DNA from: a phage
DNA: 64,000 nt
Sequence record: OZ346219.1
Direction: 5' to 3' (one strand)
Shown: positions 1 through 55,170 of the stretch, piece after piece
Position numbering within the stretch: the stretch's first letter is position 1
Layout of the letters: the number at the start of each line of letters is the position of its first letter
Notes under the pieces: model-generated
Seen by the model: only the letters and a program-made list of their open reading frames with translations
Database searches by the model: none
What the model was told of the DNA's origin: nothing
Program-made: the position numbers and the translations under genes

Positions 1-2
1 CA

Positions 3-17798: not shown

Positions 17799-18056
17799 TT
17801 AATTAAAATCTTCTTTGTCCATCTCTGCGTAAATTACATCCCACGCCCATAAATCAATAAACGCATTATATGTCACGGTGCAATCGTTGTCAATCACTTC
17901 TTTCGCATATTTCTTGATGTTTTCGTAGGAAACTTGCGGATCAATTTTGTGTTTACGAAGATGCGCATATTCATACCTCAAACACTCCATAAACAGGTCC
18001 ATCGATTTCTTTTCTCGATGACACTTGGCGATCAGAAAATCAAAACTTCGACTCAT
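17799..18056 (-). CDS. hypothetical protein (85 aa)
   Basis: Track ORF between rIIA and gp39. Confidence 0.4.
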   Translation of the reverse strand: MSRSFDFLIAKCHREKKSMDLFMECLRYEYAHLRKHKIDPQVSYENIKKYAKEVIDNDCTVTYNAFIDLWAWDVIYAEMDKEDFN

Positions 18057-18848: not shown

Positions 18849-18876
18849 ATTATAGAGAATCTCCCTTGTATGTCAA
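18849..18876 (-). promoter_or_regulatory. early promoter TTGACA-16-TATAAT flanked by AAGGGAGA/TCTCCCTT palindrome
   Basis: Minus strand: TTGACAtacaagggagattctcTATAATgggagtctccctt. Confidence 0.5.
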
Positions 18877-25164: not shown

Positions 25165-25689
25165 TTAGTAGCCGCGTTCTTGACGGGCGAAGTTTTCAGC
25201 ATTTTTCAGATAGTACAGAATAAAGAGTTCTTGAGCGTCAATACCCAGCGGGATCATCTTTGACAGAATGAAGTGGATCGCGTCCACAAATTCAAATTTC
25301 ACTTCAAGCTGATCTTCCGGTGACAGTTCAGAGAATTTACGCGCTCGCGCTTCTCCGTGGTTCTTTTTCCACATTTTCCAGATTGCACTTGCATCTTTAC
25401 CATTGGACATTCCACCCAGCGATGTGTAAAGCTCTCGTGTTTCGTCTGCGATAGCGTCATCCATCCGTTGCATCCAATCCAGCATTTCACCGCAAGTCTC
25501 TAGCTTAGTTGGATTTGGGACCCAATCAAATTTTTCGGATAATGCAACCTGCAAACCAGTTTGCATTTCGAGCATCACCTGAAACGGATCTTTACCTTCT
25601 GCAATCGCGTGATGATATGCGGCGATAGCCGCGTTAATATCTTTTTCGTTAACCAGACCAGCACAAGAATTAAATTCTGACATATTCAC
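25165..25689 (-). CDS. gp56: dCTP pyrophosphatase gp56 (MazG-like)
   Basis: GKDPFQVMLEMQ, KLETCGE, SPEDQLEVKFEFVDAIHFIL, LYYLKNAENFARQERGY match recalled T4 gp56. Confidence 0.75.
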   Translation of the reverse strand: MNMSEFNSCAGLVNEKDINAAIAAYHHAIAEGKDPFQVMLEMQTGLQVALSEKFDWVPNPTKLETCGEMLDWMQRMDDAIADETRELYTSLGGMSNGKDASAIWKMWKKNHGEARARKFSELSPEDQLEVKFEFVDAIHFILSKMIPLGIDAQELFILYYLKNAENFARQERGY

Positions 25690-26730: not shown

Positions 26731-27285
26731 TCACCTCTCTTTATATCGTGATGTTCTGGTCTGACTCTTCCATATTCTTCTTATGGTTATCGTGTGCACT
26801 CCGTATATTATAGCAAGTTCTTTTACAGACGCAACACCCTGTTTAGACCTGATCTCTTCTACTTGATGGTCAGTTAACTTTGCGTTTCCGTGTGTTTCTC
26901 CATAGTTTTTGTTCAATCCTTCTTCTTTAGCGTGTATAAGATTTTCTCTTTGTGTTGTCCACTCAAGGCCATACAGATCAAAATCCTTTTTATCACCAAA
27001 TTTGTGATTTACTACAGGGTAGTTGTTTGGATTTGGTATAAATGCTTCTGCTAATGCCCTATGAATATAAACGCCGACGGTCTTTGGCTTGCCCGACTTT
27101 GTTCTGTTGGCGTAATCTCTTATATTACAAGAGACATAACCTTTTGTTATTTTAGTTGATCTGACCTTGCCAGTGGCTTTATTTCTTAGTTTACCATAAG
27201 AACTAATTTCATATTCTGGATACGATACGCCCATATAAACAAGGTCTTTCCATTCTTCTGGATGTTCATCACAATACCGTTTCAT
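26731..27285 (-). CDS. HNH homing endonuclease (NUMOD4-like N-terminus plus HNH_3-like core)
   Basis: W..L..GVSYPEYEISSYGKLRN (NUMOD4-type) and VNHKFGDKKDFDLYGLEWTTQREN (HNH-type) motifs. Confidence 0.7.
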   Translation of the reverse strand: MKRYCDEHPEEWKDLVYMGVSYPEYEISSYGKLRNKATGKVRSTKITKGYVSCNIRDYANRTKSGKPKTVGVYIHRALAEAFIPNPNNYPVVNHKFGDKKDFDLYGLEWTTQRENLIHAKEEGLNKNYGETHGNAKLTDHQVEEIRSKQGVASVKELAIIYGVHTITIRRIWKSQTRTSRYKER

Positions 27286-27824: not shown

Positions 27825-28202
27825 TCATAGAATAATCTCTTTCAGTAAGTCAACAATCTGGTCTTTCGTCAGTTTATCCTGATTCTCTACAATCTTGATA
27901 ACACAAGCGTTAACATCTTTTCGAGTAACGCGGGAGATCGTTTTAATACGATGAAACGGTTCGTAGAAATATACTGCTTCATTATAGAGCGCAGCAATTT
28001 TTCGACGCATTTGATCTTTATCTGACAAGAAAACAAGTGCTGTTTTATGACCTTCTACACCCGCCACGTTATATAGTTCAGCAACACCCCAGCGACCTTC
28101 CGGTTCAATCATTCCGGCGTGTTTACCGTCGATAAAAATAAGAATATCTCCGTTGAATGCGGTTTTGAATGCTACATCTTCCGGCGTAATCATATTTTTC
28201 AT
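27825..28202 (-). CDS. hypothetical protein (125 aa)
   Basis: Track ORF between gp61 and gp41. Confidence 0.45.
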   Translation of the reverse strand: MKNMITPEDVAFKTAFNGDILIFIDGKHAGMIEPEGRWGVAELYNVAGVEGHKTALVFLSDKDQMRRKIAALYNEAVYFYEPFHRIKTISRVTRKDVNACVIKIVENQDKLTKDQIVDLLKEIIL

Positions 28203-28232
28203 AATATAGTCTCCTTAGAGTTTCATTATAGA

Positions 28233-28868
28233 TCAAGCGAATGTAGAAAGCAAATGTTTTGTTTCTTTCAGTTGTCGTTCAAGATCTTTGCGTTTCTCTT
28301 TAAGTTGCATTTTAGCATTATTTCGCTGTTTTTCAACATCTTTATCAATGCTCTTATTCCAGTTATCAATATCAGAATAAGTTGGCATACCCAATTCTAG
28401 ACCTAATGCGGTTGGATACAGGGTAACAGTCCATAAACCGCTAATCTTCTTAAATAGGTCTGGGTGTAGTGTACTATCTACATCTTCTGGTGTCAACTCT
28501 TTTTCTTCTTTCAGTGGTGGGATCTCGTCATATGGTTCCAGTGCATTTACTTTAATATCAGATACCTCATCAAAGAATCCGCGTACATCCGCAGGAAATA
28601 CACAAGCAATTTCCCAACCGTGATCACGCAGAGAAGTAATATTTTTCACTCCCCCACCATGTGTGATGATTGATGTGACATTGCCATCAAGGTCCACCGA
28701 ATTTACGAGAAATGGCTTATCGTCTGTCAGATCATTATAAAACTGTGCTTCGGCTGTAGTCATCTCCAGAAACAGATCTCGGATCGTACGACCATCAGGT
28801 GCGTTACCTTCCTTGAGAGTATAAAAGCGACTTACGATCCATTTTGGCGGTAAAGCATTAGCGATCAT
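28233..28868 (-). CDS. hypothetical protein (211 aa)
   Basis: Track ORF. Confidence 0.45.
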   Translation of the reverse strand: MIANALPPKWIVSRFYTLKEGNAPDGRTIRDLFLEMTTAEAQFYNDLTDDKPFLVNSVDLDGNVTSIITHGGGVKNITSLRDHGWEIACVFPADVRGFFDEVSDIKVNALEPYDEIPPLKEEKELTPEDVDSTLHPDLFKKISGLWTVTLYPTALGLELGMPTYSDIDNWNKSIDKDVEKQRNNAKMQLKEKRKDLERQLKETKHLLSTFA

Positions 28869-28918
28869 GTTATATCTCCTATCAAATCATTCACCAGCGC
28901 CCCGCAGGGCGCATTTTA

Positions 28919-30331
28919 TTAGAAAGTCATGTTATTTGCTAGCTCGTCGAGTTTTTCTCGTTTCTCGGCTTGCTGTGCGCTTTGTGGTTTAACTTGTGCA
29001 TTCTCCTGATCTGCGATCTGGTTTGGTACTTCATACCAACGCTGATTGCCTTTTTTCACACCAACGTTAAACCGTGAATAATAGTTCTTATCACCGTAAC
29101 GAGACTTGATCTGCTTCATGAGTTGGACGCCCATTTTAGCCAGGTCTTCGGTTTCGATAACACCCAACATAAAGTCGGCAGTAGCCGGAAGACCTGCTGA
29201 TTCAGCGGTATCACTCATGTTAAGGTCGGAAGCATCCCAACCCGCGCGGGTAGTCTGTGCCGCAGTCCAACCAACAACATCCCACTTAACAAAAAATCCT
29301 CGCAGTTCTTCCGCAATCGCCTTAACTAGTGTGTAACTATTTTCAGAGTATACACGCAAGCGAGACGATGCGCAAATCCCCAGATAGTCAACAATCACAA
29401 CATCAGGTTTAAACTGTTTCTTGAGTCGCAATTCATTCATTAACGCCTCAAAGTGATTGGAGTTCGCGCCACCAGTCGGATACTGCTTGATCATCAATTT
29501 TCCAACCGGACGATCTCCGATCTTCTTATTCTTAACACGCTTCATACGTGCGGAATATTCCGCAAAAGAAACATTACCATTATCCAATTCATCTAATGTA
29601 ATGTCAAGCAAGTTTGCGTCGATACGTTTGGCTACGACATGCTCTGCCATCTCCATTGAGATATACAATACATCATAACCACATTCCATATAATCCGCAG
29701 CAAGAGAACATAATCCAAGCGATTTACCAACATTTACACCAGCAAGCAACACATTTAGCGTTTTTCTTTCCGCACCTCCTTTCGTGATTTTATTCAACAT
29801 CGGCAGCTTAAACGGGATCTTATTCGCCTTAGTCTGATATAGCAAGAATCGTTTTTCAAAGTCATTAAACCAGTCATGACCTACATCAGAATCAAACGTA
29901 ATGGATAGTGCTTCCTGCATGATCTCAGGAATAGCACCCTCACTCGGCAATTTCTTATTCTGTTTCTCTTTTGGTAGTTGTGCGTTCGCCTGAATCTCTA
30001 GCGCCCGTGACATTGCATTATACATGGCACGGTCACGAATAAATTTTTCGGTTTCCTTCATTAACCAATCAAGGTCTTCCGGTGTATTCTCCAGCGAATC
30101 GAGAAGAGTTTTCGCCCCTTCATATGTTGTCTGATTGCCTCTCTCCTTGTCTAAAGCAATCTGTAATGCTGTTGGCGTAGGAATATTGGAATATTCGTCT
30201 ACGTGCTTTTTAATCAGCTTATAAATCAGTTTTTCTTCGTCTTCGGTGAAGTAGTCCGCTTTAAGGTGAGGCCATACATTCGTAAAGAATGCGCCATTGT
30301 AAATCAACTGTGAAAAGATAGTTTTAATCAT
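28919..30331 (-). CDS. gp41: replicative DNA helicase gp41 (DnaB-like)
   Basis: 470 aa; Walker A region GVNVGKSLGL and an N-terminus resembling T4 gp41. Confidence 0.85.
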   Translation of the reverse strand: MIKTIFSQLIYNGAFFTNVWPHLKADYFTEDEEKLIYKLIKKHVDEYSNIPTPTALQIALDKERGNQTTYEGAKTLLDSLENTPEDLDWLMKETEKFIRDRAMYNAMSRALEIQANAQLPKEKQNKKLPSEGAIPEIMQEALSITFDSDVGHDWFNDFEKRFLLYQTKANKIPFKLPMLNKITKGGAERKTLNVLLAGVNVGKSLGLCSLAADYMECGYDVLYISMEMAEHVVAKRIDANLLDITLDELDNGNVSFAEYSARMKRVKNKKIGDRPVGKLMIKQYPTGGANSNHFEALMNELRLKKQFKPDVVIVDYLGICASSRLRVYSENSYTLVKAIAEELRGFFVKWDVVGWTAAQTTRAGWDASDLNMSDTAESAGLPATADFMLGVIETEDLAKMGVQLMKQIKSRYGDKNYYSRFNVGVKKGNQRWYEVPNQIADQENAQVKPQSAQQAEKREKLDELANNMTF

Positions 30332-30645
30332 ACATAGCCCCCAACTACACGCATAACAAAGGTCTTGAGTTTATACCAGAAAGTTTCTTTTTTCAACTTT
30401 TCTTCTGCTTCTTTGATCTGCGCGGTTAACGCCTTAATGACGTGTGGATATACCACATCACGATCTGACGGCGTGGAGTAGTCGACCACAATACCTTTAG
30501 TGTCTGGATCGTATTCAACATTATGAATATAGACAATATGATGTTCTCCCTCTTCATCAACAATTATCAATTCCTGAATAACTGTCTTCATTGCTTCTTG
30601 AATCAAGCCGTGTGCTTCTTCTAAACTTGTTGGCTTCTTATCCAT
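30328..30645 (-). CDS. gp40-like protein (105 aa)
   Basis: Position between gp41 and uvsX as T4 gene 40; C-terminal hydrophobic tail. Confidence 0.4.
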   Translation of the reverse strand: MDKKPTSLEEAHGLIQEAMKTVIQELIIVDEEGEHHIVYIHNVEYDPDTKGIVVDYSTPSDRDVVYPHVIKALTAQIKEAEEKLKKETFWYKLKTFVMRVVGGYV

Positions 30646-30700
30646 AATATAATCCTCTCTAGATATGAAAAAGGGGCACGTAGCCCCTTTACTACCATTG

Positions 30701-31771
30701 TTATGCTAACATATCTTCGATTTCTTTGTCAACTGATTCGTCGCTGATCACTTGCCCCAGCTTATAATGATCGTTGATCGCTTCGTTAAACTTATCGTTT
30801 GTCAGAAGTGGTTTCCAGAACTCAACGCTATTGGTTTCTTTAGCACGGAACTTGCGTTCTTCGGTTTCCATCTCTCCGGTCTCAGTATTCAGGATTGAAC
30901 GAGAATACCAGCCGTTTGACGGTTTCACTACCCAACCTAACTCTACAGCCAATTCCAGCAAGCCAGAATAAGGATCGATGCCACCGCTAAATGTTACGCT
31001 AATCGGGAACTTAGATTTTTCTTTAACGGTTCGTGATTTTTCCGCATTCAGGATAAAATCATAACCAGTAATTTCGGTTCCTTCTTTCTGCTGACGACGA
31101 CCAATAATGAAAACTTCATTGGCTGAATACATCGCGCCCGTACCGCCGGACATAACGGTCTTACTAAACATTTCTTGCGTTTCGTAAGTGTGGTTAATAG
31201 CGATGCACGGGATATCATTCATAGTCAGATACGGCGTAACCATACGGAACAAGCCTTTAAGTGCTTTAGCTCGCGTCATATCCTGTGCGGATTTCTCATT
31301 AATCGCGTCTTCAACTTCTTTTTTACTTGCTAAGTTACCGATTGAGTCAATAAAGATGATCACTTTATCTTCACGGGTAATTTGCTCAAGCTGGTTCATG
31401 ATTTCAAATTTAAGTTCTTCGATGTTCTTGATTGGAACATGCACCACGCGATCAGGATCTACACCCATAGATTCAAGATAAGCGGATGTAATACCGAACT
31501 CAGAATCAAAGAACAAACACGCCGCATCAGGATTCTGTTTCATGTATGCACTAACACAGGTTAATCCCATGTTTGATTTAAAGTGCTTAGACGGACCAGC
31601 AAAGAAAATCAGACCAGATTGAAAGCCTTTTTTAAGATCACCCGAAAACGCAATATTCAGCATCGGGATCTTAGTGCGAGTATTTGTTTTTTCGTTAAAG
31701 AAGCTGGATTTAGACAGTACCGCAGTAGTTTTCAGGGTAGAGTTCTTTTTCAGTTTTTCCAGTACAGACAT
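30701..31771 (-). CDS. uvsX: UvsX recombinase (RecA-like)
   Basis: FFNEKTNTRTKIPMLNIAFSG, GPSKHFKSN, CIAINHTYETQEMFSKTVM, KSRTVKEKSKF match recalled T4 UvsX. Confidence 0.85.
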   Translation of the reverse strand: MSVLEKLKKNSTLKTTAVLSKSSFFNEKTNTRTKIPMLNIAFSGDLKKGFQSGLIFFAGPSKHFKSNMGLTCVSAYMKQNPDAACLFFDSEFGITSAYLESMGVDPDRVVHVPIKNIEELKFEIMNQLEQITREDKVIIFIDSIGNLASKKEVEDAINEKSAQDMTRAKALKGLFRMVTPYLTMNDIPCIAINHTYETQEMFSKTVMSGGTGAMYSANEVFIIGRRQQKEGTEITGYDFILNAEKSRTVKEKSKFPISVTFSGGIDPYSGLLELAVELGWVVKPSNGWYSRSILNTETGEMETEERKFRAKETNSVEFWKPLLTNDKFNEAINDHYKLGQVISDESVDKEIEDMLA

Positions 31772-31782
31772 TATTAATACCT

Positions 31783-32010
31783 CTATTCAGTTAATCCGTA
31801 ATACTTTAATTGCTTCATTGTTATTCGATCTTTGTAGTGCTCTTGAATTAACTTTTTCATCGCATCAACATCGATCGTCACAAATACTTCGTTGCTGTGA
31901 TTTCCGTGAACTTTCTTGAAATGCTCTATGCCTTCCTCACGTTCACGTTTAATCTTTTCAATGTCTCTCATCATATATTTCTCACGTTGGCGGGTATCGT
32001 CACCCAACAC
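31783..32010 (-). CDS. hypothetical protein (75 aa)
   Basis: The only ORF between uvsX and gp43. Confidence 0.4.
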   Translation of the reverse strand: MLGDDTRQREKYMMRDIEKIKREREEGIEHFKKVHGNHSNEVFVTIDVDAMKKLIQEHYKDRITMKQLKYYGLTE

Positions 32011-32032
32011 CCGCCATTATACACACTTTATC

Positions 32033-34711
32033 TTAAATGTCAAACAGGTCTGTAAGAGATGCCACTTTTTCATATTGCAGCTTTGCAGCCGTGGTAATGT
32101 TCTCCAGTGGTTTGACGAAAGTCTTATTAAACAACAAAGGCCAGTCCAACCACTTCAACACCTCTGATTCAATTTCTGGAGGAATACGAGTACCAGACAA
32201 CCAACCAAAACAGATTTCTCCAAACGGATTTCGATCTTTCAGCGGTACAATCATAACCTTCTCGCCTTCACGAATCGGATCTAGTCCGAATTTTCGAGCA
32301 TTACGATTATAACACAATACACTCTTAACCGCATATGGACAACCCTTAATCGGATACCCGTTTGAATCGCTGTATTTCTGTAGGTTGTTTGCAGATGATA
32401 CCGCAGCAACCTCAAGATAATCAAGTTTTCTAAATTCTTGCTCAAAAATACCGTAGTATTCCTGCAATGACTCTTCACCTTCCTGCAACATACGGCGAAT
32501 ACATTCTTTCAGTGATTTCTGACATGCTTTAGGGGTGGAGCTACGTTGCGTTTCCAAGCCCATGATTTTTAGCTTAGGTTCAGCAAAGCGCGTTCCTTCC
32601 ATATCCCAAACATTAAGAGCATAACGCTTTTTACCAGTCCAGAATCCACCGATACCCGCAGATTTCAATGGAGGACCAGCAATTGCCTCACGGTCCATAA
32701 ACATCAAGTGCTCATAGTTGTTCATGTACTCGCATAACTCGCGATATCCCTTGTCGATAATAGGTTCCATTCGATGTTTACCGAAATTATCAAGGAAGTC
32801 AACAAGTTTTTCGGTATCGTCGAAACGGTCTTCCCCGCCAACCTTATCAACAACATTGTTAACCAGCACATAAACGGAGTCAGTATCACAATAACGAACA
32901 TATGCAAAATCGGTTGTTCCACAAAGCTCGTTTAAGTATTCGTTAATCTTACGCTCAATCCACTGAATTGCAAGCTGACCAAACAAGGTGATCGCACTAG
33001 CGTTACGGAGATCATAAAAACGGAATTTAGGATTCCCCAACGCACCATAAAGGGAGTTGATCAAAACTTTACGAGAAAGCTGGTTTGTATTGCACAAGAT
33101 CGACTCGTCTTTACATTCTTCCAGCAATTTCTCTAAGGCATCTTTACTTAATTCAGAAAGCATCGATTTAAACGCTTCATCAAAGTCGTGACGCACTTCA
33201 ACGCTATAGTTAATGGTTCCTCCATAAACATGATTTTCATCGTGTAGAATCGCTTTACAGAGTTCAGCATTGCGATCACATGCCAACATCATGTTTTTGT
33301 ACTGCTTACGCTGATCGAATACCTTTTTAATCTCAATCGGTACGATACCGTGAATATCTTTTCTATACATCCATCCGTTAGGCGAGCAAGAATACTCATC
33401 ACTCGGACGTGGTGCAGTTTTATTGATATACTCGTGCATCGGTGCAGCATCAAAAGATCCAGCGATTGTTTCAGGCGAAATATTAACCTGTCGAATAATA
33501 GATGGGTACAGACTTGTTAAGTCAAAGCTCATCATCCAACGGTAAGCATTCGGCACAGGTTCTTTTACGAATGCGCCTGGATACGTCTGCTTAGGCTGTA
33601 TCTTATTTTCCGGTACTACTTTACCCTCAGCTTTCAGAGATCCGAAGATAATAGCATCCCATACTTTCATCGGGTTATAAACATGGTTAAATTTAATCTT
33701 TGCATAGAAACATAGACTATACACAAGATCGATAAATCCACGCTTTTTATCAATCGCCAGCACACGATCAACGTCGCCGATGTTATAATCGATGTAAAGT
33801 TGATGGTTGTCATCACGCAATTTCTTTAACGGACCATCATAATCAACCTTACCGATTCCTGTCTCATATTCAGCAACATAATCTAATGCATATGTTGGTT
33901 GAGTCGTAAAGCTAAATTTCTTGTACAGGTCAATATAATCAAGGCTTTCGATCCCCATGATCGTAAATGCTTCACGCTCGTTGCCAAAATCATCCTGTGA
34001 GATTCGGGATTTAATCTTACCGCACGGGCTTAGACGGTTAGCGGTTCTACTTCCGAACTTATTACTGATACGTTTAATGATATATGGAATATCGAATGTT
34101 TCTGTGTTCCAGCCAGTGAAACCAACGGGTCGGTTTTCCTCAAAGAATCGGATGTATTCTAACAGCAATTCATCTTCTGTGTCATAGACGTTATAAACAA
34201 CGCGCTCTACAATATCAGGTCGAAGAATAGACTTGCTTGCTTCCCAGATTTCACCGTTTTTTCCTTTCAAATCAAATACAAAGAAACGATCATGTACGGA
34301 ATCATAATGCGTAATTGCATCGATAGGATATTTCGCTTCTTCTGGTTTAGGAAATTCCGGTGCAGTGACCTCGATATCAACCCATGCTACACGGATTTTA
34401 TTTCGGTCATATCGAATCTCGCCTTTATATGTATCGGACAGATAGGAGATGATAAAATCATCCATCCCTAGTGCCTCCTGCCCCATTTCTCCCATCTTTT
34501 TACGCCATTTGTTGGCCTCGTTCATAGAGGGGAATTTTTTAGCAATGCAAGGCTTGCCATAGATATCTTTATAATTCGTAACCATACCAGGCGCGGCATG
34601 ATGAAATAAAGTTGGCGTATATTCAACGTAACGCTCTTGTTCTTGTCCAGCATCATCAATATAACGCTCGTAGATCTTATCACCTACTCGCTCACATGAC
34701 AGAAAATACAT
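32033..34711 (-). CDS. gp43: DNA polymerase gp43 (family B)
   Basis: ERYIDDAGQ, exonuclease region, SFDLTSLYPSIIRQVNISPET, INSLYGALGN, YCDTDSVYV match T4 gp43; start set to the ATG at 34711 with RBS AAGGAG. Confidence 0.9.
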   Translation of the reverse strand: MYFLSCERVGDKIYERYIDDAGQEQERYVEYTPTLFHHAAPGMVTNYKDIYGKPCIAKKFPSMNEANKWRKKMGEMGQEALGMDDFIISYLSDTYKGEIRYDRNKIRVAWVDIEVTAPEFPKPEEAKYPIDAITHYDSVHDRFFVFDLKGKNGEIWEASKSILRPDIVERVVYNVYDTEDELLLEYIRFFEENRPVGFTGWNTETFDIPYIIKRISNKFGSRTANRLSPCGKIKSRISQDDFGNEREAFTIMGIESLDYIDLYKKFSFTTQPTYALDYVAEYETGIGKVDYDGPLKKLRDDNHQLYIDYNIGDVDRVLAIDKKRGFIDLVYSLCFYAKIKFNHVYNPMKVWDAIIFGSLKAEGKVVPENKIQPKQTYPGAFVKEPVPNAYRWMMSFDLTSLYPSIIRQVNISPETIAGSFDAAPMHEYINKTAPRPSDEYSCSPNGWMYRKDIHGIVPIEIKKVFDQRKQYKNMMLACDRNAELCKAILHDENHVYGGTINYSVEVRHDFDEAFKSMLSELSKDALEKLLEECKDESILCNTNQLSRKVLINSLYGALGNPKFRFYDLRNASAITLFGQLAIQWIERKINEYLNELCGTTDFAYVRYCDTDSVYVLVNNVVDKVGGEDRFDDTEKLVDFLDNFGKHRMEPIIDKGYRELCEYMNNYEHLMFMDREAIAGPPLKSAGIGGFWTGKKRYALNVWDMEGTRFAEPKLKIMGLETQRSSTPKACQKSLKECIRRMLQEGEESLQEYYGIFEQEFRKLDYLEVAAVSSANNLQKYSDSNGYPIKGCPYAVKSVLCYNRNARKFGLDPIREGEKVMIVPLKDRNPFGEICFGWLSGTRIPPEIESEVLKWLDWPLLFNKTFVKPLENITTAAKLQYEKVASLTDLFDI

Positions 34712-34793
34712 AATATAAACTCCTTCACTTACGAAAGACACTCATTATAGGGGAATCGACTTAGTTTGTCAATACCCCTATCCCATCAGTATC

Positions 34794-35156
34794 TTATCGC
34801 CCGATCTGATATTTCTCGATCAGCGTCCACTCTTCTTTCTGTTTGAAAGACAGTACACGGAAATTATTAACTTCGGTAGTTTCAAAATCACTATCAATCA
34901 GGGTACACAGATTCCACTGCGCCAGAAGTTTTGCAATGTTATTACGGCGTAATTCATCTTCCCACGTCATTTTAACACTACGACCATCTAATTTCAACAA
35001 CTCCTTGAAATGAACGATGTAATAGCGCCCCTTCTTCTGGAGAATATGACAAGACTGATACAGTGTCTTGTCTCGATTGTTGGCAATGCCGCAGCGGGTT
35101 AAAGTCTCCTTAATTTTAAGGAAGTTTTCAGGACTAATCAAATTAATTTCAATCAT
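34794..35156 (-). CDS. regA: translational repressor RegA
   Basis: KETLTRCGIANNRDKTLYQSCHILQKKGRYYIVHFKE closely matches recalled T4 RegA. Confidence 0.85.
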   Translation of the reverse strand: MIEINLISPENFLKIKETLTRCGIANNRDKTLYQSCHILQKKGRYYIVHFKELLKLDGRSVKMTWEDELRRNNIAKLLAQWNLCTLIDSDFETTEVNNFRVLSFKQKEEWTLIEKYQIGR

Positions 35157-35157
35157 T

Positions 35158-35736
35158 TTACCACCTTTCTATAATCTTTTTAAGTCGTTTCCTTTCTGTC
35201 TGATTCTTAGTAACACCCGCCAAAAGTTCATCGGTCGCATACGGTTTAATGTGCTTCAATAACTTGTCCATATATCCCTTTTCATTAGCCAAATCGAGAT
35301 AAAACCGGGCGTCATCCATATTTACACAATATGCTTTCGCCACTGCCATTAAAACCAATTTTTGGTCCAATTCTTCTGTTAGTTTAGCCCATTTACCGTA
35401 TCGTTTCCCCTTAGAAATACTCTGTAAGAGATAATCAAAATGCATTTGATCTGGGAGGCCATGACCGATTAAATTCATCACATACGCGCTATATAGGCAA
35501 TCTGCGTGCTGGGAAAGAGCGGTGTTAATCCATCTCTGGTTATATGCAGAATTGTTTCCCACATTAACGCGCTGTTTATCTAAGGTGATATGATCCATCA
35601 GAGCAAATAATGCATTGTCGGTTTTCTCGGTGAATGTATCCGCTAATTCAGACACCTTTTCCCAATCACGAGAGCGCCATGCAATTTCATGCTCGTTTAA
35701 TTGTGTATCATCTTCACCGAAAAATTGACCTAACAT
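35158..35736 (-). CDS. gp62: clamp loader subunit gp62
   Basis: QLNEHEIAW, GKRYGKWAKL, C-terminal TKNQTERKRLKKI..W resemble T4 gp62; position between regA and gp44. Confidence 0.75.
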   Translation of the reverse strand: MLGQFFGEDDTQLNEHEIAWRSRDWEKVSELADTFTEKTDNALFALMDHITLDKQRVNVGNNSAYNQRWINTALSQHADCLYSAYVMNLIGHGLPDQMHFDYLLQSISKGKRYGKWAKLTEELDQKLVLMAVAKAYCVNMDDARFYLDLANEKGYMDKLLKHIKPYATDELLAGVTKNQTERKRLKKIIERW

Positions 35737-36710
35737 TATACGAACTCCAATTCAACCATTAATTGCATTAACAAAAAGACAATGTGAATCTCTTTATCAG
35801 CCGCGTGTGCAAACATCTGATTATTTTCACCGATAATCTCGGTCAGACGGATAATCGACGCTGGCTTAACTTGAGTATACAACTCATTATAAAGTTTCTT
35901 GACAAATTGAGCGTATGTATTGGTATATCGCGGTGCAAGTTTACGCACATTAGCAAACTGTTTAGTTTTAAGTGCTTCCACCACATCTGTTACTTCGGTA
36001 TTGCTACTTTCGATAACCATGCTCAATACGCCAGCATCAATTTTGCCATGTTTAGCGTAGCGATCCAAAAGTTTCATTACGCGCCGGAAGTCTGGGAAGT
36101 TCTGCTTAACCAGTTCCGCTAATACGCGCATTTCTTCTACTGGCACACCTTCTTTATCAAGAATTGCTTTACACCGGACGATCATTTCTTTCATCATGCG
36201 AAGCTGATCATCTTTAGTCGGAGATCCAAACGTGATGGGGTCAAATCGAGATCGTAACGCTGGGATAATACCTTCTAGATCGTTTGCTGTGATAATGAAT
36301 GTCACGTTGTTTGAGTATGCCTCAGAGAAACTACGCAAGTGTCTTTGAGCATCAGCTAGCCCCGCTCGGTCATACTCATCGATAATAACAACTTTGCCTT
36401 TTTCTCTTTTTTCTTCATCGAGTGATACACTCTGCGCAAAGCGTGTAATCTCATCGCGGATAAAATCAATCTTACAATCTGCGCCGTTAACAAACAGATA
36501 ATCAACACCCACATCTTCGCAAAGCGCCTTAGCAACGGTTGTTTTACCAGTACCTGGCGATGGGCTATGCAGGATCATAGAAGGGATTCGGCCTTGCTTA
36601 ACAATCTGCGCGAAGATCTTTTTATCTGCTTCCGGCAGAATACATTCAGAAATTGATTTCGGACGGTATTTCTGTTCCCACTGAAACTCATTTTCATTAA
36701 CACTCAGCAT
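35736..36710 (-). CDS. gp44: clamp loader ATPase subunit gp44 (AAA+)
   Basis: EQKYRP...HSPSPGTGKTTVAKALC...IIDEYDR matches T4 gp44; the track start at 36725 is a GTG, so I use the ATG at 36710 with RBS GAGAGGTGA. Confidence 0.85.
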   Translation of the reverse strand: MLSVNENEFQWEQKYRPKSISECILPEADKKIFAQIVKQGRIPSMILHSPSPGTGKTTVAKALCEDVGVDYLFVNGADCKIDFIRDEITRFAQSVSLDEEKREKGKVVIIDEYDRAGLADAQRHLRSFSEAYSNNVTFIITANDLEGIIPALRSRFDPITFGSPTKDDQLRMMKEMIVRCKAILDKEGVPVEEMRVLAELVKQNFPDFRRVMKLLDRYAKHGKIDAGVLSMVIESSNTEVTDVVEALKTKQFANVRKLAPRYTNTYAQFVKKLYNELYTQVKPASIIRLTEIIGENNQMFAHAADKEIHIVFLLMQLMVELEFV

Positions 36711-41578: not shown

Positions 41579-42604
41579 CTAACTTTTTGCGCTATTTACC
41601 TCGGCTAAAAGTTCATCAGAAATACGCTTGACCGCCGCAAGTTCTTCCGGTTCTAGGTTTTGTTCTTCCAGATATTCATAGACCATCTGAATAGTGCTTT
41701 TAACTTCAATAACACCTGTTTCCTGTGATGCGCTACTCTCCAGCTTATGGACCACTTTTAGCTTGTGTACAACGGCCTCTAAAGCGCTTTCTAACTTAGT
41801 TAACCCATTATCAGCGACCGTTGCGATAAGACGCACACTAAGCCCCTTAAAGCGTTCTACATCGATTTTATCATCTGACGGGTAAGTGATACGCACATGA
41901 TAAGTTTTGTCATTCTGGATAAACTCCTTTTTGTGTGTATCGGTATCGAATACCCAAAAACCACGCGGATCGTTTTCGTCACCAGCCGTTAGTGTGTATG
42001 GTGTACCAATATACGTTACGTTACCGCCATCACTGATAGTATGAAAGTGACCAGAAAACACTTCACGGTATTTCTTGAGGAAGTCCGCGCTATAACCTTC
42101 TGATTTTAGACCTTTATAGAAATAGTAACCGGACAATTCCCAATGGCCTACACAATATTCGCTGAATGAGTTTTGAATAAACTCTAAAATCTCTGATTTA
42201 TTGTCATCACAAAACCACGGGAACAGATCAAATGATACACCATCAAAGGTGACTGTTTCCGGTTTATCGATAACCTTAATGCAATCATACTGGCTTAACA
42301 CTTCACGCGGTGCGTTAGGCTGGATCTTGTTTCGTTTAAACATATCATGGTTCCCGACCGTGATATAACAAGTAATTCCAGCCTCTTCCAGTAATGGGAT
42401 GACCTTAGTACGGTTAAATTTCATGGTTTCATGGGTAATTGCTTTTCGGCAATCAAACCAATCCCCTGTTTGAATCCATGTCTTAATATTATGCTCTTTG
42501 GAGTATTCAACCGCCTTCTTGATGGTATCAAGAATATACTCATGCACCCACGGATCATCGCCACCGATACCAGTATGCAGATCACCTAAAAGCAAAATTT
42601 TCAT
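41579..42604 (-). CDS. gp47: recombination endonuclease subunit gp47 (SbcD/Mre11-like)
   Basis: MKILLLGDLHTG...TWIQTGDWFD...VGNHD...FSGHFHT are calcineurin-like phosphoesterase motifs matching T4 gp47. Confidence 0.85.
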   Translation of the reverse strand: MKILLLGDLHTGIGGDDPWVHEYILDTIKKAVEYSKEHNIKTWIQTGDWFDCRKAITHETMKFNRTKVIPLLEEAGITCYITVGNHDMFKRNKIQPNAPREVLSQYDCIKVIDKPETVTFDGVSFDLFPWFCDDNKSEILEFIQNSFSEYCVGHWELSGYYFYKGLKSEGYSADFLKKYREVFSGHFHTISDGGNVTYIGTPYTLTAGDENDPRGFWVFDTDTHKKEFIQNDKTYHVRITYPSDDKIDVERFKGLSVRLIATVADNGLTKLESALEAVVHKLKVVHKLESSASQETGVIEVKSTIQMVYEYLEEQNLEPEELAAVKRISDELLAEVNSAKS

Positions 42605-42694
42605 AGTCTCTTCCTCTCTTCGTTTTCGATGCTCTCACTATATCACAGAAAAATAAAAAGGGAAACCCCTTTCAGAGTCTCCCCTATAAAGCCA

Positions 42695-42982
42695 TTACAG
42701 CATACTTAATACCGTTTGCCGTGTACTAATCCACATAGCAGAAAGCAGTTCTGGCGTGTGTGGCTGTTTGTAGATATCACGTAACTTTCCGATAGCGTAG
42801 ATATACGCATCACGGTTATCATCGATGATAGCTTGTTCAGCCCACCGCTTAAGGCGTGCAATCTCTCGCGAGTTCTTACGCAAGATCTTTTCCGCTTTCT
42901 TAGCGGCTTTAGCCTCTAGTTCTGCTTGTACTTTGTCTACTTCATTCACTGCAATCTGGTCATGCTGTTCATCGTAAGTCAT
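42695..42982 (-). CDS. hypothetical protein (95 aa)
   Basis: Track ORF between gp47 and gp55. Confidence 0.4.
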   Translation of the reverse strand: MTYDEQHDQIAVNEVDKVQAELEAKAAKKAEKILRKNSREIARLKRWAEQAIIDDNRDAYIYAIGKLRDIYKQPHTPELLSAMWISTRQTVLSML

Positions 42983-42983: not shown

Positions 42984-43217
42984 TTATTTTCCTTCTGGGA
43001 TATAGTCGATGATTAAAGAAAATTCATCTTCTGATACATTATAGCTATGTGAGATTGTACCCGTAAAGACCTCAAGATCCGGTGATTTGATATTGCACGG
43101 ATCGATAATCACCGGAACGCCGCAATCTCTCAAAAATAATTTGGCGAAATACGGCACAAGGTCAGTTTCAAACTCTGCTTCTTCCAGCAAACGGGAAATG
43201 TTAATTTTCAATCTCAT
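42984..43217 (-). CDS. hypothetical protein (77 aa)
   Basis: Track ORF. Confidence 0.35.
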
Positions 43218-43734
43218 AAAATTGGTCCAAGCTAGGCAATTCCTCGGTCAATACATCTTCAACCTTTGGCGCTTTCGGTTTATTGACCGATTCCTCGTAG
43301 TTGTTGATTTTATCGTAAATGTCCTGTATGAATGCCTCATCAGCAATCTGGCACATATCAGCGTCGCGTTCGTCATATACATGATGCACAAAATATTTGT
43401 ATTTTGCGGCTGTCGCTGTTCTCTCTTTTTTAATGCGCTGTACAAAAGCATTAAAGCACGCTTGCGTGATGTAAGCATGAGGATTTTTATACTTTGTCTC
43501 GTCAAAATTAATCAAACCCTTGACCGCCGCTTCGATTCCGTCGTCGATCATTTCTTCGCGCCACGTTTGACTATAACCAGAAAAGTTAAAACGACGTGAT
43601 AGATTTTTAGAGATTTGCATAATTGCTAGGCCGATTTGATCGCTCATTGGAACTTGCCGACCTTCTGCTGCAATTTGTTGTTTCCAACGGCAAATTTCTT
43701 CGTAAAGCTCTTTATTGTTTACATAATCAGACAC
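43201..43734 (-). CDS. gp55: late-transcription sigma factor gp55
   Basis: [58 protein letters not shown] is near-identical to recalled T4 gp55. Confidence 0.85.
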
Positions 43735-43774: not shown

Positions 43775-45244
43775 CTATTCCCCATTACCATTATACTTTC
43801 TTTGCTTAGTTATCCACACTCTAACCATCTCTACAGATTCGCCGTCAGACGGATCAAGAGTTTTTCCTTTTTTCTTCATGCGGTACTTAAATCCGTTAAA
43901 TCTTGCATTCTCTTGCTCGTTAAAGTCGAACATCTTTTTAAATGATTTTCGCCCTTTACGTTCACCACATTCTAGCGGAATCATTCGATCTGTTATTACA
44001 TTGGCATTAGGCAGAAACGTTTTTAGATAATCCACCAACGCCCAATCAGGAACATATAGATTAACATTCTCCTTGCTCTCGTTGTCTCTCAGGTTACAAC
44101 GCAAACATAATTGAAATGCTGGTTCCAGATAATCAGACACATGACGCGCTTTCAAAAACTCGTTTGTCGGGAGATCACAACTATTAGCAAGACCTTTTAA
44201 AATATCAATCTCCCATCGTTGAGGGTTAAAGCTGAACATCACAGCAACATTTTTATGATGAATGTAAGAGTTAAGACCATAAGACCCGTAAGGTATCCGC
44301 TCACCAATACCATTTGTACACGCTTCACGGTCCCGATTCACGGTATAAATGAAGTCATCGCCACATTCATTTTTAACCATATCAACAAGACGTTCAAAGG
44401 TATTGTTTGTTTCTGACTGGTGACGCGACCATCGTTCAGAGTCCGTCATAAGGATGATATTAACTCTATCTGTATTTTTATACTCTTTGAAATATAGTCT
44501 GGATTCTAGCGCACTCGGAACAAAATCGCAATTTGCATAGTATCGTAGATACTTCCCACTATATGTATCAAAGAGATTTGCACATGCTATCGTAACCTTT
44601 TTAAAGTCTCCCCACGTACCGTGTTTGTTATCGTTCAAGAAAACAATTTTCGACCCATTCTTCCGGTGTCCTTCGTTATGTTTTACCATAACGTTGATTT
44701 TCTTCTCTAATAACGCCTCATAAAGCCCTCTAAGAGAAGAATCGATCATATCAGTACCATCCTTCGCACTTTCTATCTTTTCTTTGATAGCGGCCTTCTC
44801 AGAGTCTTTTAGAACTAAGTTCTGTAGGCATTCCGATTCGTCGGCGATTGGTTCGCAATGCTTAGTGATAAGTTCAAGATTAGACTTAAACGGATACTCA
44901 TTAAATTCAACCAGTTGAGGAACTTCATCAATGTAAAGAGCATAATCACCAAACATTTTTGAACGTTCCATATTAGATAACGCTGTATGTGTAATGAATA
45001 TCACATCAGCACCATCTTTAACTGATTGCATTATCGACGCTTGCACTGTCTTAAGGCTTCTTAGTCTTGTGCTATCAATCAAGACAGCACGACCGCCCAT
45101 TCTTTTAAACTTATTGTAAGATTGTTCACTTAAAACACGAGATGGCGAAGCAATAACCGCTTTTTCTTTTGTCTCTAGGACGTGGGAAAGTATAGCATCA
45201 GTTTTCCCCGCCGCTGGCAATGCGATTAATGTTTCAATCTTCAT
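43775..45244 (-). CDS. uncharacterised P-loop NTPase (489 aa) with helicase-like motifs
   Basis: Walker A LPAAGKTD (res ~9-16), motif Ia-like IASPSRVLSEQ, Walker B-like YIDEV (~res 105); not matched to any T4 protein I can recall. Confidence 0.5.
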   Translation of the reverse strand: MKIETLIALPAAGKTDAILSHVLETKEKAVIASPSRVLSEQSYNKFKRMGGRAVLIDSTRLRSLKTVQASIMQSVKDGADVIFITHTALSNMERSKMFGDYALYIDEVPQLVEFNEYPFKSNLELITKHCEPIADESECLQNLVLKDSEKAAIKEKIESAKDGTDMIDSSLRGLYEALLEKKINVMVKHNEGHRKNGSKIVFLNDNKHGTWGDFKKVTIACANLFDTYSGKYLRYYANCDFVPSALESRLYFKEYKNTDRVNIILMTDSERWSRHQSETNNTFERLVDMVKNECGDDFIYTVNRDREACTNGIGERIPYGSYGLNSYIHHKNVAVMFSFNPQRWEIDILKGLANSCDLPTNEFLKARHVSDYLEPAFQLCLRCNLRDNESKENVNLYVPDWALVDYLKTFLPNANVITDRMIPLECGERKGRKSFKKMFDFNEQENARFNGFKYRMKKKGKTLDPSDGESVEMVRVWITKQRKYNGNGE

Positions 45245-45711: not shown

Positions 45712-45970
45712 AAATCGCCCTCAGTTCTTTATAGCCTCCAATGTGCTCGTTGTCAATGAATATCTGGGGGTATACAAACCGGAGGCTCTTTGAGTTCAGC
45801 CTCCCCGCCAGTTCTTCAATCATATCACGGTCGGGAATAATGTCAACCCCGACCTGCTTGAATACTGGTTTAAGTGTATATGGAATACCCAGATCATCCA
45901 GTAGCTTCATTGCACTAATACAACCATAACAATGATAAGCCTCTTTCGGTATACCGTATATCTCGATCAT
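45701..45970 (-). CDS. nrdH: glutaredoxin-like protein (NrdH-like)
   Basis: 89 aa with CYGC redox motif near the N-terminus; position before nrdG as in T4. Confidence 0.55.
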   Translation of the reverse strand: MIEIYGIPKEAYHCYGCISAMKLLDDLGIPYTLKPVFKQVGVDIIPDRDMIEELAGRLNSKSLRFVYPQIFIDNEHIGGYKELRAIYDY

Positions 45971-46467
45971 TTCTCAGCCTTTAATCTTTCTAGTTCTTCT
46001 TCCAGTTCCTTGATCCGTTGGTCACGTTCAAAGTCACGCTGCAACTTAGTGGCGAATACTCGTTTAAACTGATTGTAATCATCGATTTTAAACACTTCTT
46101 CTTCGCCATAGCGACGCACAGAAACTTCGTAGTTATTGAAGAATTGTTGCATCATTGCTTCGGATGATAGTTCTGCTGATACTACTTTAAAATATTGATC
46201 TTCGGTAGGTGAAAACCAATTACAAGCATAAAGATAAACCTTTTCATTGTCTGGACACTGGTAAGCCTTACCATCGATTTCAATCACAGAAACATATTCA
46301 GGTATAGTAGATGAATCAATAGCTAAGACTTTAAACTGACGGTCCCCGATAAACTCGGAGATCACACGATTCGCATCACTGGTTGCAAAGGCTTTACGCG
46401 CTTGTTCGTTTTTCCACTGATAGGTCATGCCAACAACAAACATATTACCAACCTCGCTCTTTACCAA
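45967..46467 (-). CDS. hypothetical protein, divergent member of the W-E-V-G-K-T-Y paralog family
   Basis: N-terminus ...VVGMTYQWKNEQARKAF plus VSVIEIDGKAY and a coiled-coil C-terminus, similar to the three following ORFs. Confidence 0.45.
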   Translation of the reverse strand: MVKSEVGNMFVVGMTYQWKNEQARKAFATSDANRVISEFIGDRQFKVLAIDSSTIPEYVSVIEIDGKAYQCPDNEKVYLYACNWFSPTEDQYFKVVSAELSSEAMMQQFFNNYEVSVRRYGEEEVFKIDDYNQFKRVFATKLQRDFERDQRIKELEEELERLKAEK

Positions 46468-47269
46468 TCAAAAATTCAACTTCACGACGTTTAATGTCTT
46501 CTTGAAGGTCTTTAATCTTCTGGCGATCTTGCATTATTTCGTCCATCTTGTCAAGTGCTGCGATGAAATCATCGAAACGTTCAAAGGTTTTACCTTCATT
46601 TGCTTCGCTAAATTTAACCATTGTCAGGCCATAACGACTACTAAACAGACGTTTCAACTGTCCAACGATCTTAGAATCAGTGGTTATAACTTCCAATTCT
46701 TCTACTTCACGAAAGAATTTTCTATCAGAATCAATAAACCAGCTAGTTCCTTTATGGTCGCTATCTTCGGTTGCACTCATTAGAGTATGGTCTTTACCAT
46801 CAATTTCAATTACATTAACTTGCCCACATAGACTAACATTTTTAACAGTAAAAGGTCTATAATTTATTGCTCGTGCAATAACATAATTAAGGTTAGATAC
46901 GTTTTCAGCATAATGACAGAAGTCGGTCATAGCATTCGCATCTTTCCAAGTATAAGTTTTACCAACTTCCCATTTCTGGGGAACTTCTTCAACTTCACGA
47001 AAGAATTTTCGATCGAATGGACTAAAGAAATATGTTGCAGTCCAAATGTCTTTTCCTGTAGCAGTTTTCGCCGTATGATAAACACCGTCTAGCTCTATTG
47101 CATTAATCCAACCGTTACCCTCGATCTCGATGATGGTAAATGGCTTGTCACCAATAGCTGCACTAATATCGCTGTTAAGTGGAGAAAGAACACCTTCTCC
47201 GTTAGTAATAAACTCAGTTTTAGAGTTTTCATCTTTCCAAGTGTAAGTTTTACCAATTTCCCATTTCAT
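46445..47269 (-). CDS. hypothetical protein with internally duplicated W-E-(I/V)-G-K-T-Y-T-W-K-D domain (274 aa)
   Basis: MKWEIGKTYTWKDENSKTEF... and ...QKWEVGKTYTWKDANAMTDF..., each followed by PFT(I/V), IEIDG and RKFFREVEE. Confidence 0.5.
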   Translation of the reverse strand: MKWEIGKTYTWKDENSKTEFITNGEGVLSPLNSDISAAIGDKPFTIIEIEGNGWINAIELDGVYHTAKTATGKDIWTATYFFSPFDRKFFREVEEVPQKWEVGKTYTWKDANAMTDFCHYAENVSNLNYVIARAINYRPFTVKNVSLCGQVNVIEIDGKDHTLMSATEDSDHKGTSWFIDSDRKFFREVEELEVITTDSKIVGQLKRLFSSRYGLTMVKFSEANEGKTFERFDDFIAALDKMDEIMQDRQKIKDLQEDIKRREVEFLIGKERGW

Positions 47270-47281
47270 AATATATTCCCC

Positions 47282-52596: not shown

Positions 52597-52627
52597 AATA
52601 TAATCCTCTCGTTGTTTAGATGGGAGT

Positions 52628-54067: not shown

Positions 54068-54361
54068 TTAACCATTAATCTTGTTTTTGACTACAAAGGA
54101 TCGGAACTCATCAAAACCACCGATATAATCACCATCATAGAAAATCTGCGGCATGGTGGCAATAACTTCTACCCCTGCGCGATCCTGAATATCGGCAATG
54201 ATAGAATCAATCTTTACCGGACGACCGTTTTCGTCCACACCATCATTAACCGGAATGTAGATGTAAGGGATCTTACGCGATTCACAAAGGCGCTTTGCAT
54301 TCTGGCAATACTTACAGTTGTAACCTTCAAAACCAAAAATTTCTACCATGTTATACCTCAA
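54068..54361 (-). CDS. nrdC: glutaredoxin/thioredoxin NrdC-like
   Basis: CKYC redox motif near the N-terminus, MPQIFYDGDYIGGFDEF resembles T4 NrdC. Confidence 0.65.
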   Translation of the reverse strand: MRYNMVEIFGFEGYNCKYCQNAKRLCESRKIPYIYIPVNDGVDENGRPVKIDSIIADIQDRAGVEVIATMPQIFYDGDYIGGFDEFRSFVVKNKING

Positions 54362-55170
54362 TCTACGTTAGTTACATAAACTTCTTGTGTATCAGAAGAC
54401 TTGCCACCTGAACGATCTAGGCAATAGGTCTTATTCAACAGGACGCAGTTTAAATCATTCCGCTTGATAAAGTCAAGAAGATGATCATTTACCTTTCCCT
54501 TATGATGTGTGACATTACTTATACCAAACTGAAAACCACGCGCCATAATAGATTCTACCCACTGATAGAATTTAATCTCTTCCTCGTCACTCCAGAACTT
54601 ATTATATTCCGCAGAAGTGATAAGGTACGGCGGGTCCAAATAAACGAAATCACCTGGCAAGATCTCGATCTCGTCATAACGACCAGACGTAAAACTGATT
54701 CGACCGTCTTTGTTTTCTTCCTTAAAATTCAGGACACGCTCTACCGCGTTTTCGTTAAAAGTCCGGCGACCAAAATTAGCATTAAATTCGCCCTTCCTGT
54801 TATGACGGTTAATGTTGCTAAAACTGTGCTGAATCAGAACAAACAGAGATAGCGGATCTGGATTCTCATTATACTTCTTACGGAATGCCATGTAAGCATC
54901 TTTATCATCACGAGACAAACCATTTTCGGCAATAATCCTCTTGATCATAAAAACCGGATCAGGACACTCATCAATGACCTTGTAAGCGTCAATTAAGCGG
55001 TGATCATAGTCATTAGCCAGCACATCCCCTTCGACGTACAGAGACACGCTCAAGCCACCACAAAAGGCATCGACAAAGCGGTTATAGTGCTTAGGGAAAT
55101 ACTTACTAACACCAGGCAATAACTTTTCCTTATTGCCCGTATAGGGAATTAAACCTAATGCTTTCTTCAT
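54358..55170 (-). CDS. dam: DNA adenine methyltransferase (Dam-like, N6-A MTase)
   Basis: SAM-binding FVDAFCGGLS and catalytic YLDPPY motifs with Dam-like spacing. Confidence 0.8.
   Translation of the reverse strand: MKKALGLIPYTGNKEKLLPGVSKYFPKHYNRFVDAFCGGLSVSLYVEGDVLANDYDHRLIDAYKVIDECPDPVFMIKRIIAENGLSRDDKDAYMAFRKKYNENPDPLSLFVLIQHSFSNINRHNRKGEFNANFGRRTFNENAVERVLNFKEENKDGRISFTSGRYDEIEILPGDFVYLDPPYLITSAEYNKFWSDEEEIKFYQWVESIMARGFQFGISNVTHHKGKVNDHLLDFIKRNDLNCVLLNKTYCLDRSGGKSSDTQEVYVTNVD

Follow-up and report, generated by a model that had tools for sequence, protein, structure and literature searches.

Gene content of the uvsX-43 and 47-55 intervals

The analyzed DNA, a 64-kb stretch from a phage (sequence record OZ346219.1; hereafter the window), carries on its minus strand the genes for gp41, gp40, uvsX, one small ORF, and gp43, in this order. 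A second interval relevant to this study lies between the genes for gp47 and gp55. The genes of both regions, apart from the small ORF described below, are as follows:

28919..30331, minus strand: gp41 replicative helicase, collinear with RB49p022
30328..30645, minus strand: gp40-like head vertex assembly chaperone (Pfam Phage_head_chap, 6e-25; tblastn with T4 gp40, E 3e-8)
30701..31771, minus strand: uvsX recombinase (63% identity to T4 UvsX, E 3e-151)
32033..34741, minus strand: gp43 DNA polymerase (55% identity to T4 gp43 over 903 aa; probable ATG start at 34711)
41579..42604, minus strand: gp47 recombination nuclease subunit (56% identity to T4 gp47, E 7e-117)
42695..42982, minus strand: a-gt.4 homologue, a small ORF that is not a glucosyltransferase (44% identity, E 1e-12; tblastn match 42698-42886)
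42984..43217, minus strand: a-gt.5 homologue, a small ORF (32% identity, E 6e-8; tblastn match 43005-43217)
43201..43734, minus strand: gp55 late sigma factor (61% identity to T4 gp55, E 9e-69)

The first-pass annotation had pointed out that beta-gt, gene 42, and imm, which occupy the uvsX-43 interval of T4, are missing here, and that alpha-gt is missing between 47 and 55. The T4 record agrees with this description of T4, with segA and imm.1 as additional genes between uvsX and 43, and it contains 47.1, alpha-gt, mobB, and a-gt.2 to a-gt.5 between 47 and 55. The span given for the interval (30646-32032) needs correction, as it includes the whole uvsX gene; the gap between uvsX and 43 is 31772-32032, or 261 bp.

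T4 proteins were used as tblastn queries against the window and the complete genomes of its relatives RB49 and SAP, a search that short, fast-evolving proteins such as Imm could evade. No match better than E 0.2 was found in the window for beta-gt, 42, imm, imm.1, alpha-gt, segA, denB, arn, ipI, or ndd, and alc gave only a chance-level match of 24 residues (E 0.10), so both absences noted in the first-pass annotation were borne out; the 47-55 gap contains the a-gt.4 and a-gt.5 homologues only. Likewise, beta-gt, alpha-gt, imm, imm.1, alc, denB, arn, ipI, and ndd had no significant tblastn match in complete RB49 and SAP, and the best E values for the DNA alpha- and beta-glucosyltransferases were 0.2-2.2 across the window, RB49, and SAP. 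Among the genes for discrimination against cytosine DNA and for anti-restriction, alc, denB, arn, and ipI were thus found in none of the three sequences, and the relatives have denA only. Complete RB49 and SAP both carry 56, dam, denA, cd, td, frd, tk, and gene 1.

All window ORFs of at least 200 aa were explained by the RB49 annotation or by Pfam, with no glycosyltransferase among them, and Pfam, PHROGs, and NCBIfam searches with the larger uncharacterised ORFs of the window revealed no glycosyltransferase or base-modifying domain. One window protein of 489 aa is DEAD-helicase-like, and four window paralogues belong to phrog_5347 / GoF-like proteins.

The 261-bp gap between uvsX and gene 43

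Three features were recognized in the gap, all on the minus strand:

32016..32043, minus strand: predicted sigma-70 early promoter, TTGACA-16 nt-TATAAT, matching the consensus at 12 of 12 positions
31988..32016, minus strand: stem-loop of 12 bp directly after the -10 box (predicted RNA fold -22.5 kcal/mol, z -5.9)
31783..31974, minus strand: small genus-restricted ORF of 62-63 aa, homologue of RB49p025 (phrog_12120, 4e-42 over 62 of 62 positions)

The -35 box (TTGACA, 32043-32038) overlaps the last codons of gp43, whose stop codon comes next, and the -10 box (TATAAT) lies 16 nt past it at 32021-32016. The window contains eight perfect 12/12 promoter matches where chance predicts 0.1, and every one of them is on the minus (coding) strand. 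RB49 has an annotated early promoter at the same place. None of 200 shuffled sequences was as stable as the stem-loop, and an Rfam search of 30000-35500 returned nothing.

The gap had been described as holding a single ORF of 75 aa. There is indeed one small ORF only, while its length should probably be reduced, for the 75-aa reading begins at a GTG (32010) that is located within the stem and no further downstream than the point where transcription is expected to start. The start is likely the ATG at 31974 (63 aa) or 31971 (62 aa), since either agrees with the RB49p025 annotation and with the 62-position profile phrog_12120. This profile represents a family with no assigned function, and no Pfam family was found for the ORF. 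Among 5.8 billion proteins, the ORF had matches in four clusters only, all at least 94% identical and made up of Krischvirus-like sequences only.

Two traits of the promoter-early stem-loop (PeSL) cassettes known from RB49 and phi1 (Arbiol et al. 2010, PMC2839356) are present in the gap, namely a consensus sigma-70-like promoter and an adjacent stable stem-loop upstream of a genus-restricted ORF. By these traits the gap is a PeSL-type early cassette composed of a consensus promoter, a stem-loop, and a small genus-restricted ORF. The slot that holds segA, beta-gt, 42, imm, and imm.1 in T4 would therefore be occupied here by a 261-bp early-gene cassette. It was proposed that plastic regions gain and lose small genes by way of PeSLs, and PeSL-like sequences were also noted in other phages at the plastic g43 locus (Arbiol et al. 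2010, PMC2839356).

Identity of the window and its relatives

Judging from its database matches, the window is part of the genome of a Krischvirus (RB49-like, or 'pseudo-T-even', phage), a relative of T4. A megablast search with positions 28000-36000 matched 65 phage records, and in 60 of these the identity was at least 95%; the closest were Escherichia phage kaaroe (99.2%) and RB49 (99.1%), both of the genus Krischvirus. At least 80% of the 8-kb query was covered at 95-99% identity in 59 of the 65 records. About 60 Krischvirus genomes, including RB49, kaaroe, and SAP, match the window at 95-99%, and searches with the two 25-kb ends of the window again retrieved Krischvirus (94-99%). The searches with the ends found no record identical to the window. 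Local blastn showed collinearity over the whole window, at 91-98% identity, with RB49 149090-164018 and then 1-49567.

The window has a G+C content of 40%, and ARAGORN identified no tRNA genes in its 64 kb, which correspond to 39% of the genome. Both are described traits of Krischvirus, and the lack of tRNA genes is a trait of the genus (PMC6563267, PMC7552041).

Local blastn also revealed three gene-sized differences from RB49: a NUMOD4/HNH gene (26731-27285) present in the window and absent from RB49, an HNH gene between 47 and a-gt.4 present in RB49 and absent from the window, and RB49p058, present in RB49 only. The two HNH genes are unrelated, so that relocation of the RB49 gene was rejected. 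Additionally, the tail-fibre region is just 91-92% identical to those of RB49-like phages.

The gp56 homologue and Dam

The gp56-like dCTPase and the Dam methylase named in the first-pass annotation were both recovered with the T4 queries:

25165..25689, minus strand: gp56 homologue of the dCTPase/dUTPase family (probable ATG start at 25683, 172 aa; 49% identity to T4 gp56 over the full length, E 7e-51, tblastn match 25168-25683)
54358..55170, minus strand: Dam-family N6-adenine (GATC) DNA methyltransferase (47% identity to T4 Dam, E 1e-64, match 54367-55161)

The gp56 homologue matched Pfam dUTPase_2 (PF08761; 24.8 bits against a cut-off of 22.9) and phrog_173, NTP pyrophosphohydrolase (5e-37), which places it in the all-alpha NTP pyrophosphohydrolase / dUTPase_2 family. 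The residues invariant in 34 homologues including T4 form the motifs DExRE and ExxExxD, which include the acidic metal-binding residues, and all of them are retained in the window protein (D82, E83, R85, E86, E129, E133, and D136). Its AF2 model is all-alpha with a pLDDT of 93; the best Foldseek matches of the model, mouse and human DCTPP1 and the MazG-like dUTPase DR2231, are weak (E about 1, TM 0.4-0.6), and no sequence match was found in the PDB. With all family-invariant residues kept, the sequence gives no sign of lost dCTPase activity. A class-specific residue separating the gp56 of hmC phages from that of non-hmC phages could not be argued, because the differences between the two groups track phylogeny.

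The first-pass annotation had treated the presence of a dCTPase as being at odds with the missing gene 42. This paradox is not real, since gene 56 is nearly universal regardless of gene 42: it was reported in every T4 relative but the giant phages of Aeromonas and Vibrio, with denA in nearly all (Petrov 2010, Table 4). Homologues of gp56 occur across many T4-like genera, both those that have gene 42 and those that lack it. Gene 56 also provides the dUTPase of the phage. The retained protein may serve mainly as a phage dUTPase/dUDPase that supplies dUMP. Any residual dCTPase activity, together with Cd, Td, Frd, and Tk, would then feed the dUMP/dTMP supply for a genome of 60% A+T rather than exclude cytosine. 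A phage with cytosine DNA cannot afford dCTP depletion at the T4 level, and reduced dCTPase activity of its gp56 is therefore predicted.

The methyltransferase matched Pfam MethyltransfD12 (6e-30) and TIGR00571 dam (150 bits against a cut-off of 115). On these profile matches it is a bona fide Dam-family enzyme.

Search for a dCMP hydroxymethylase in complete relatives

Another proposal was that the hydroxymethylase lies outside the window. The complete RB49 and SAP genomes contain neither gene 42 nor a glucosyltransferase gene, which speaks against this option. With T4 gp42 as query, the sole tblastn match in the two genomes was weak (E 0.006) and fell on td, the only gene of the thymidylate-synthase family in either of them. 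The td product has 410 aa with an insertion of about 140 aa, and it passes the thymidylate-synthase equivalog model with 283 bits (cut-off 108). In the alignment, it has Asn in DSFLGLPFNVASY, where T4 gp42 has Asp; the alignment also includes a row for E. coli ThyA. In thymidylate synthase, Asn at that position specifies dUMP. SAP Td differs from that of RB49 by one residue and likewise has the Asn of the thymidylate synthase type.

We therefore rejected td as a hidden dCMP hydroxymethylase, and since it is the sole family member, neither RB49 nor SAP has a candidate for this enzyme. From these relatives, 95-99% identical to the window, we infer that gene 42 is probably absent outside the window as well.

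The possibility that hydroxymethylase and glucosyltransferase genes outside the window make glucosyl-hmC by the T4 route has some points in its favor, as the window covers only 64 kb of about 164 kb and carries the gp56 homologue, and a homologue of the gp1 dNMP kinase is present in the relatives. Nevertheless, it is extremely improbable in view of the complete RB49 and SAP genomes, which lack matches to gp42, alpha-gt, and beta-gt; the same absence was reported for the genus in Petrov 2010 (Table 4) and in papers from 2025 and 2026. The missing alc, denB, and arn also speak against it, as does the purge of restriction sites described below, which suggests that the cytosines have been exposed for a long time.

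Avoidance of restriction sites

Palindrome counts were compared with the expectation from a maximal-order Markov model, using hexamers with at least 10 expected occurrences and taking an observed/expected ratio below 0.2 as depletion. The results were as follows:

RB49: 18 of 55 hexamer palindromes depleted; non-palindromic controls, 14 of 3757
SAP: 18 of 55 hexamer palindromes depleted; non-palindromic controls, 16 of 3768
T4: 0 of 51 hexamer palindromes depleted; non-palindromic controls, 0 of 3536
Window: 8 of 36 hexamer palindromes depleted; non-palindromic controls, 6 of 2528

Every one of the 18 palindromes depleted in RB49 and SAP contains C/G. Observed and expected counts in RB49 were 0 and 65 for TCCGGA, 2 and 46 for GAATTC, 0 and 37 for AAGCTT, and 0 and 34 for GGATCC; in the window, they were 0 and 27 for TCCGGA and 0 and 15 for GAATTC. 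AGCT, GGCC, and CCWGG were also depleted. GATC was not depleted in Krischvirus (945 observed, 887 expected), whereas it was strongly depleted in T4 (191 observed, 566 expected), so that site avoidance is confined to Krischvirus and GATC depletion to T4 in this comparison.

Viruses are known to counter restriction by avoiding type II sites (PMC6286503). The palindrome loss is characteristic of DNA that has had to withstand type II restriction for a long time, and it agrees with a lineage in which cytosine has lacked protection over a long period while Dam guards GATC. The loss of C/G palindromes is new supporting evidence for exposed cytosines.

State of cytosine in the window lineage

These results make it very probable that the Krischvirus lineage of the window makes no hmC and that it replicates and packages ordinary cytosine DNA. 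Such a lineage would have neither a dCMP hydroxymethylase nor glucosyltransferases, and it would also do without alc, denB, arn, and ipI, genes that are sensible only if phage DNA can be distinguished from cytosine DNA. Its protection against restriction may consist of purged type II recognition sites and Dam methylation of GATC instead of hypermodified bases.

Among the options left by the first-pass annotation, the one of no cytosine modification is thus favored, both by the RB49 and SAP genomes and by the literature, which describes the genus as having unmodified cytosine. Genes 42, denB, and alc are absent from the RB49 type, with 56 and denA present (Petrov 2010, Table 4). RB49 has no hydroxymethylase and no beta-glucosyltransferase, and its DNA, in which hmC and ghmC are both missing, is digested by HpaII and NheI (Yaung et al. 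2014). Krischvirus DNA was described as having cytosine and no hmC (Korf et al. 2019). RB49 keeps only the homologues of DenA and the dCTPase/dUTPase and transduces plasmids (Nikulin and co-workers). Furthermore, HPLC/MS of Krischvirus TB34 detected canonical nucleosides only (2026 paper, Durham phage collection).

The same 2026 paper provides evidence for modification by another, unrecognised route, which could be either a glucosyl-hmC pathway of the kind reported for SAP or site-specific 5-methylcytosine made by RB49p189. SAP was found to be BrxU-sensitive, with about 1/3 5-hmdC and about 2/3 alpha-gentiobiosyl-mdC. As for the second variant, RB49p189 is a small C5-methyltransferase-like protein with the motifs FDGSG, FPPC, and ENPV, and the group is said in the literature to encode a DNA-cytosine methyltransferase; there are also many uncharacterised ORFs. 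However, the SAP profile is that of seven Tequatroviruses from the same collection, and its near-twin TB34 is unmodified. The two phages were reported to be 99.96% identical, with no pathway genes and no informative SNPs that would account for the SAP modification (2026 paper).

In a 15.2-kb sample of TB34, we found 8 differences from SAP, of which 4 were single-base indels, two clearly within homopolymer runs; the indels fall where the TB34 annotation splits gp4 and gp7. SAP equals RB49 at all 5 of the difference positions that could be anchored in RB49. This agreement, together with the single-base indels, points to assembly errors in TB34 rather than to a genetic switch. In addition, SAP has the Asn-type td, no glucosyltransferase matches, and the same restriction-site purge as RB49. 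HpaII and NheI digest RB49 DNA, and RB49p189, which lies outside the window, found no counterpart among the Pfam and NCBIfam models.

Modification by an unrecognised route is accordingly very unlikely, and a mixed or mislabelled SAP DNA preparation appears likelier than such a pathway. We give hardly any credence to the broader claim that some Krischviruses, possibly including this one, replace cytosine with glucosylated hmC without a gene-42-type hydroxymethylase or a recognisable glucosyltransferase. If it were true, the pathway would lie among the uncharacterised ORFs, or the trait would be switched by something besides gene content.

Lastly, it is next to impossible that the gap arose by recent deletion from an otherwise hmC-containing phage, whether in this isolate or in a laboratory stock: the g43 region is known to be plastic (Arbiol et al. 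2010, PMC2839356) and T4 mutants lacking 42, 56, denB, and alc can make cytosine DNA according to part of the literature, but the same promoter, stem-loop, and ORF arrangement occurs in RB49 (AY343333 / NC_005066) and SAP, the locus is covered in 59 of the 65 matching records as given above, no close relative (>95% identity) with 42 and beta-gt at the locus was seen, and a genome-wide site purge needs long evolutionary time.

Ordinary cytosine DNA therefore remains the preferred reading. The missing hmC genes are real but expected, because the RB49-like group has long been known to lack them, and the pattern of missing genes is already known for Krischvirus. Since both the gene pattern and the unmodified cytosine had been published, the observation is a correct rediscovery. 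All that the missing genes tell is that the phage is a Krischvirus; the unmodified cytosine of these phages has been known from the earliest work on RB49 onward and is tabulated in reviews. The practical side is also known: such phages can be restricted, cloned, targeted by Cas9, and transduce plasmids, which bears on their use in therapy.

Comparison with known systems

Compared with the glucosyl-hmC system of T4, the window shares gene 56, its relatives share denA, 1, cd, td, and frd, and the flanking replication genes are syntenic, whereas gp42, both glucosyltransferases, alc, denB, arn, and ipI are absent from the window, RB49, and SAP.

RB43 and the genus Pseudotevenvirus are also E. coli phages related to T4; they retain 56 and denA and lack 42, the glucosyltransferases, alc, and denB. 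They transduce plasmids as RB49 does, and the gp56 of one Pseudotevenvirus is about 51% identical to the window homologue. In contrast to the window phage, they belong to a different genus with a larger genome, have ndd, and carry another complement of methyltransferases.

With RB49, phi1, JSE, and the genus Krischvirus, the window shares the gene order 56-61-...-41-40-uvsX-small ORF-43-regA-62-44-45...47-a-gt.4-a-gt.5-55...dam, and all of them are without tRNAs, 42, gt, alc, and denB. The promoter and stem-loop between 43 and the small ORF are the same in the window and in RB49/Krischvirus. As in the PeSLs of RB49 and phi1, a strong consensus sigma-70 promoter and a G/C-rich stem-loop immediately precede a genus-restricted ORF, and the region is a plastic one. 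Promoter and terminator activity and mini-circle recombination were demonstrated experimentally for other PeSLs (Arbiol et al. 2010, PMC2839356). The position of the stem-loop after the -10 box corresponds to one of the five described PeSL subclasses, and promoter and terminator roles are predicted for the cassette in the uvsX-43 gap.

Gene content relative to RB49 and SAP

The window differed from RB49 in its mobile genes. A NUMOD4/HNH-type gene inserted after gene 61, lacking in RB49, was matched in SAP by an annotated HNH gene at the same place, while the unrelated HNH gene that RB49 carries between 47 and a-gt.4 was missing from the window (about 42605-42694), as was RB49p058 (frd.2/goF-like; about 52597-52652). 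Divergence from RB49 was highest at positions 1-10000, the tail-fibre and adhesin end (91-92% identity), as expected for host-range genes, and the stretch 3761-4379 was unaligned to RB49.

Additionally, four side-by-side paralogous genes (166, 274, 159, and 178 aa) were identified, all of which matched phrog_5347 and gave weaker matches to GoF-like families. In the 274-aa member, an additional GoF-like part lies at the N-terminal end. A 489-aa protein encoded between gp55 and the 55.2 homologue has its own PHROG and showed a weak N-terminal match to DEAD-box helicases, scoring 27.3 bits in Pfam, where the cut-off is 26.

Genes discussed in the window
26731-27285, minus, NUMOD4/HNH-type gene
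43775-45244, minus, 489-aa protein
45967-48287, minus, four phrog_5347 paralogues

Consensus promoters

Eight perfect TTGACA-N15-18-TATAAT promoters were found in the window, against 0.1 expected by chance, and all lie on the minus strand, which is the coding strand. They are probably early promoters, or members of the promoter-early stem-loop (PeSL) family, of RB49-like phages.

Perfect TTGACA-N15-18-TATAAT promoters
15907-15935, minus
17865-17893, minus
18849-18876, minus
32016-32043, minus
34744-34772, minus
50124-50151, minus
56763-56791, minus
59729-59756, minus

Krischvirus genes beyond the window

In the RB49 portion L007, two genes were considered.

L007:15890-16606, RB49p189, 238 aa, annotated 'DNA methyltransferase'
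L007:36870-38102, td, thymidylate synthase, 410 aa

RB49p189 carries FDGSG, FPPC, and ENPV motifs that resemble motifs of C5-cytosine methyltransferases, but it matched no Pfam or NCBIfam model. The Krischvirus thymidylate synthase reaches 410 aa, compared with 286 aa for T4 Td, because an in-frame insertion of ~140 aa separates its conserved halves, and it passes the TS equivalog model despite this insertion.

Comparison of TB34 (150001-165220) with SAP over 15.2 kb revealed eight differences. Four of these, at sites where the TB34 annotation splits gp4 and gp7, are indels of one base, and two of the four clearly lie within homopolymers; at two others TB34 reads CCTGG where SAP and RB49 have CCCGG. 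Five positions could be anchored in RB49, and SAP agreed with RB49 at every one of them, which suggests, from sequence comparison, that the differences are assembly errors in TB34.

Avoidance of restriction-site palindromes

Many C/G-containing 6-bp palindromes were almost wholly missing from the window and likewise from the complete RB49 and SAP genomes. Relative to maximal-order Markov expectations, the window held no TCCGGA (27 expected), GAATTC (15), AAGCTT, ACCGGT, or GGATCC (14 each), and AGCT, GGCC, and CCWGG were also depleted in all three. T4 lacks any such avoidance, unlike Krischvirus; conversely, GATC is strongly depleted in T4 and not in Krischvirus.
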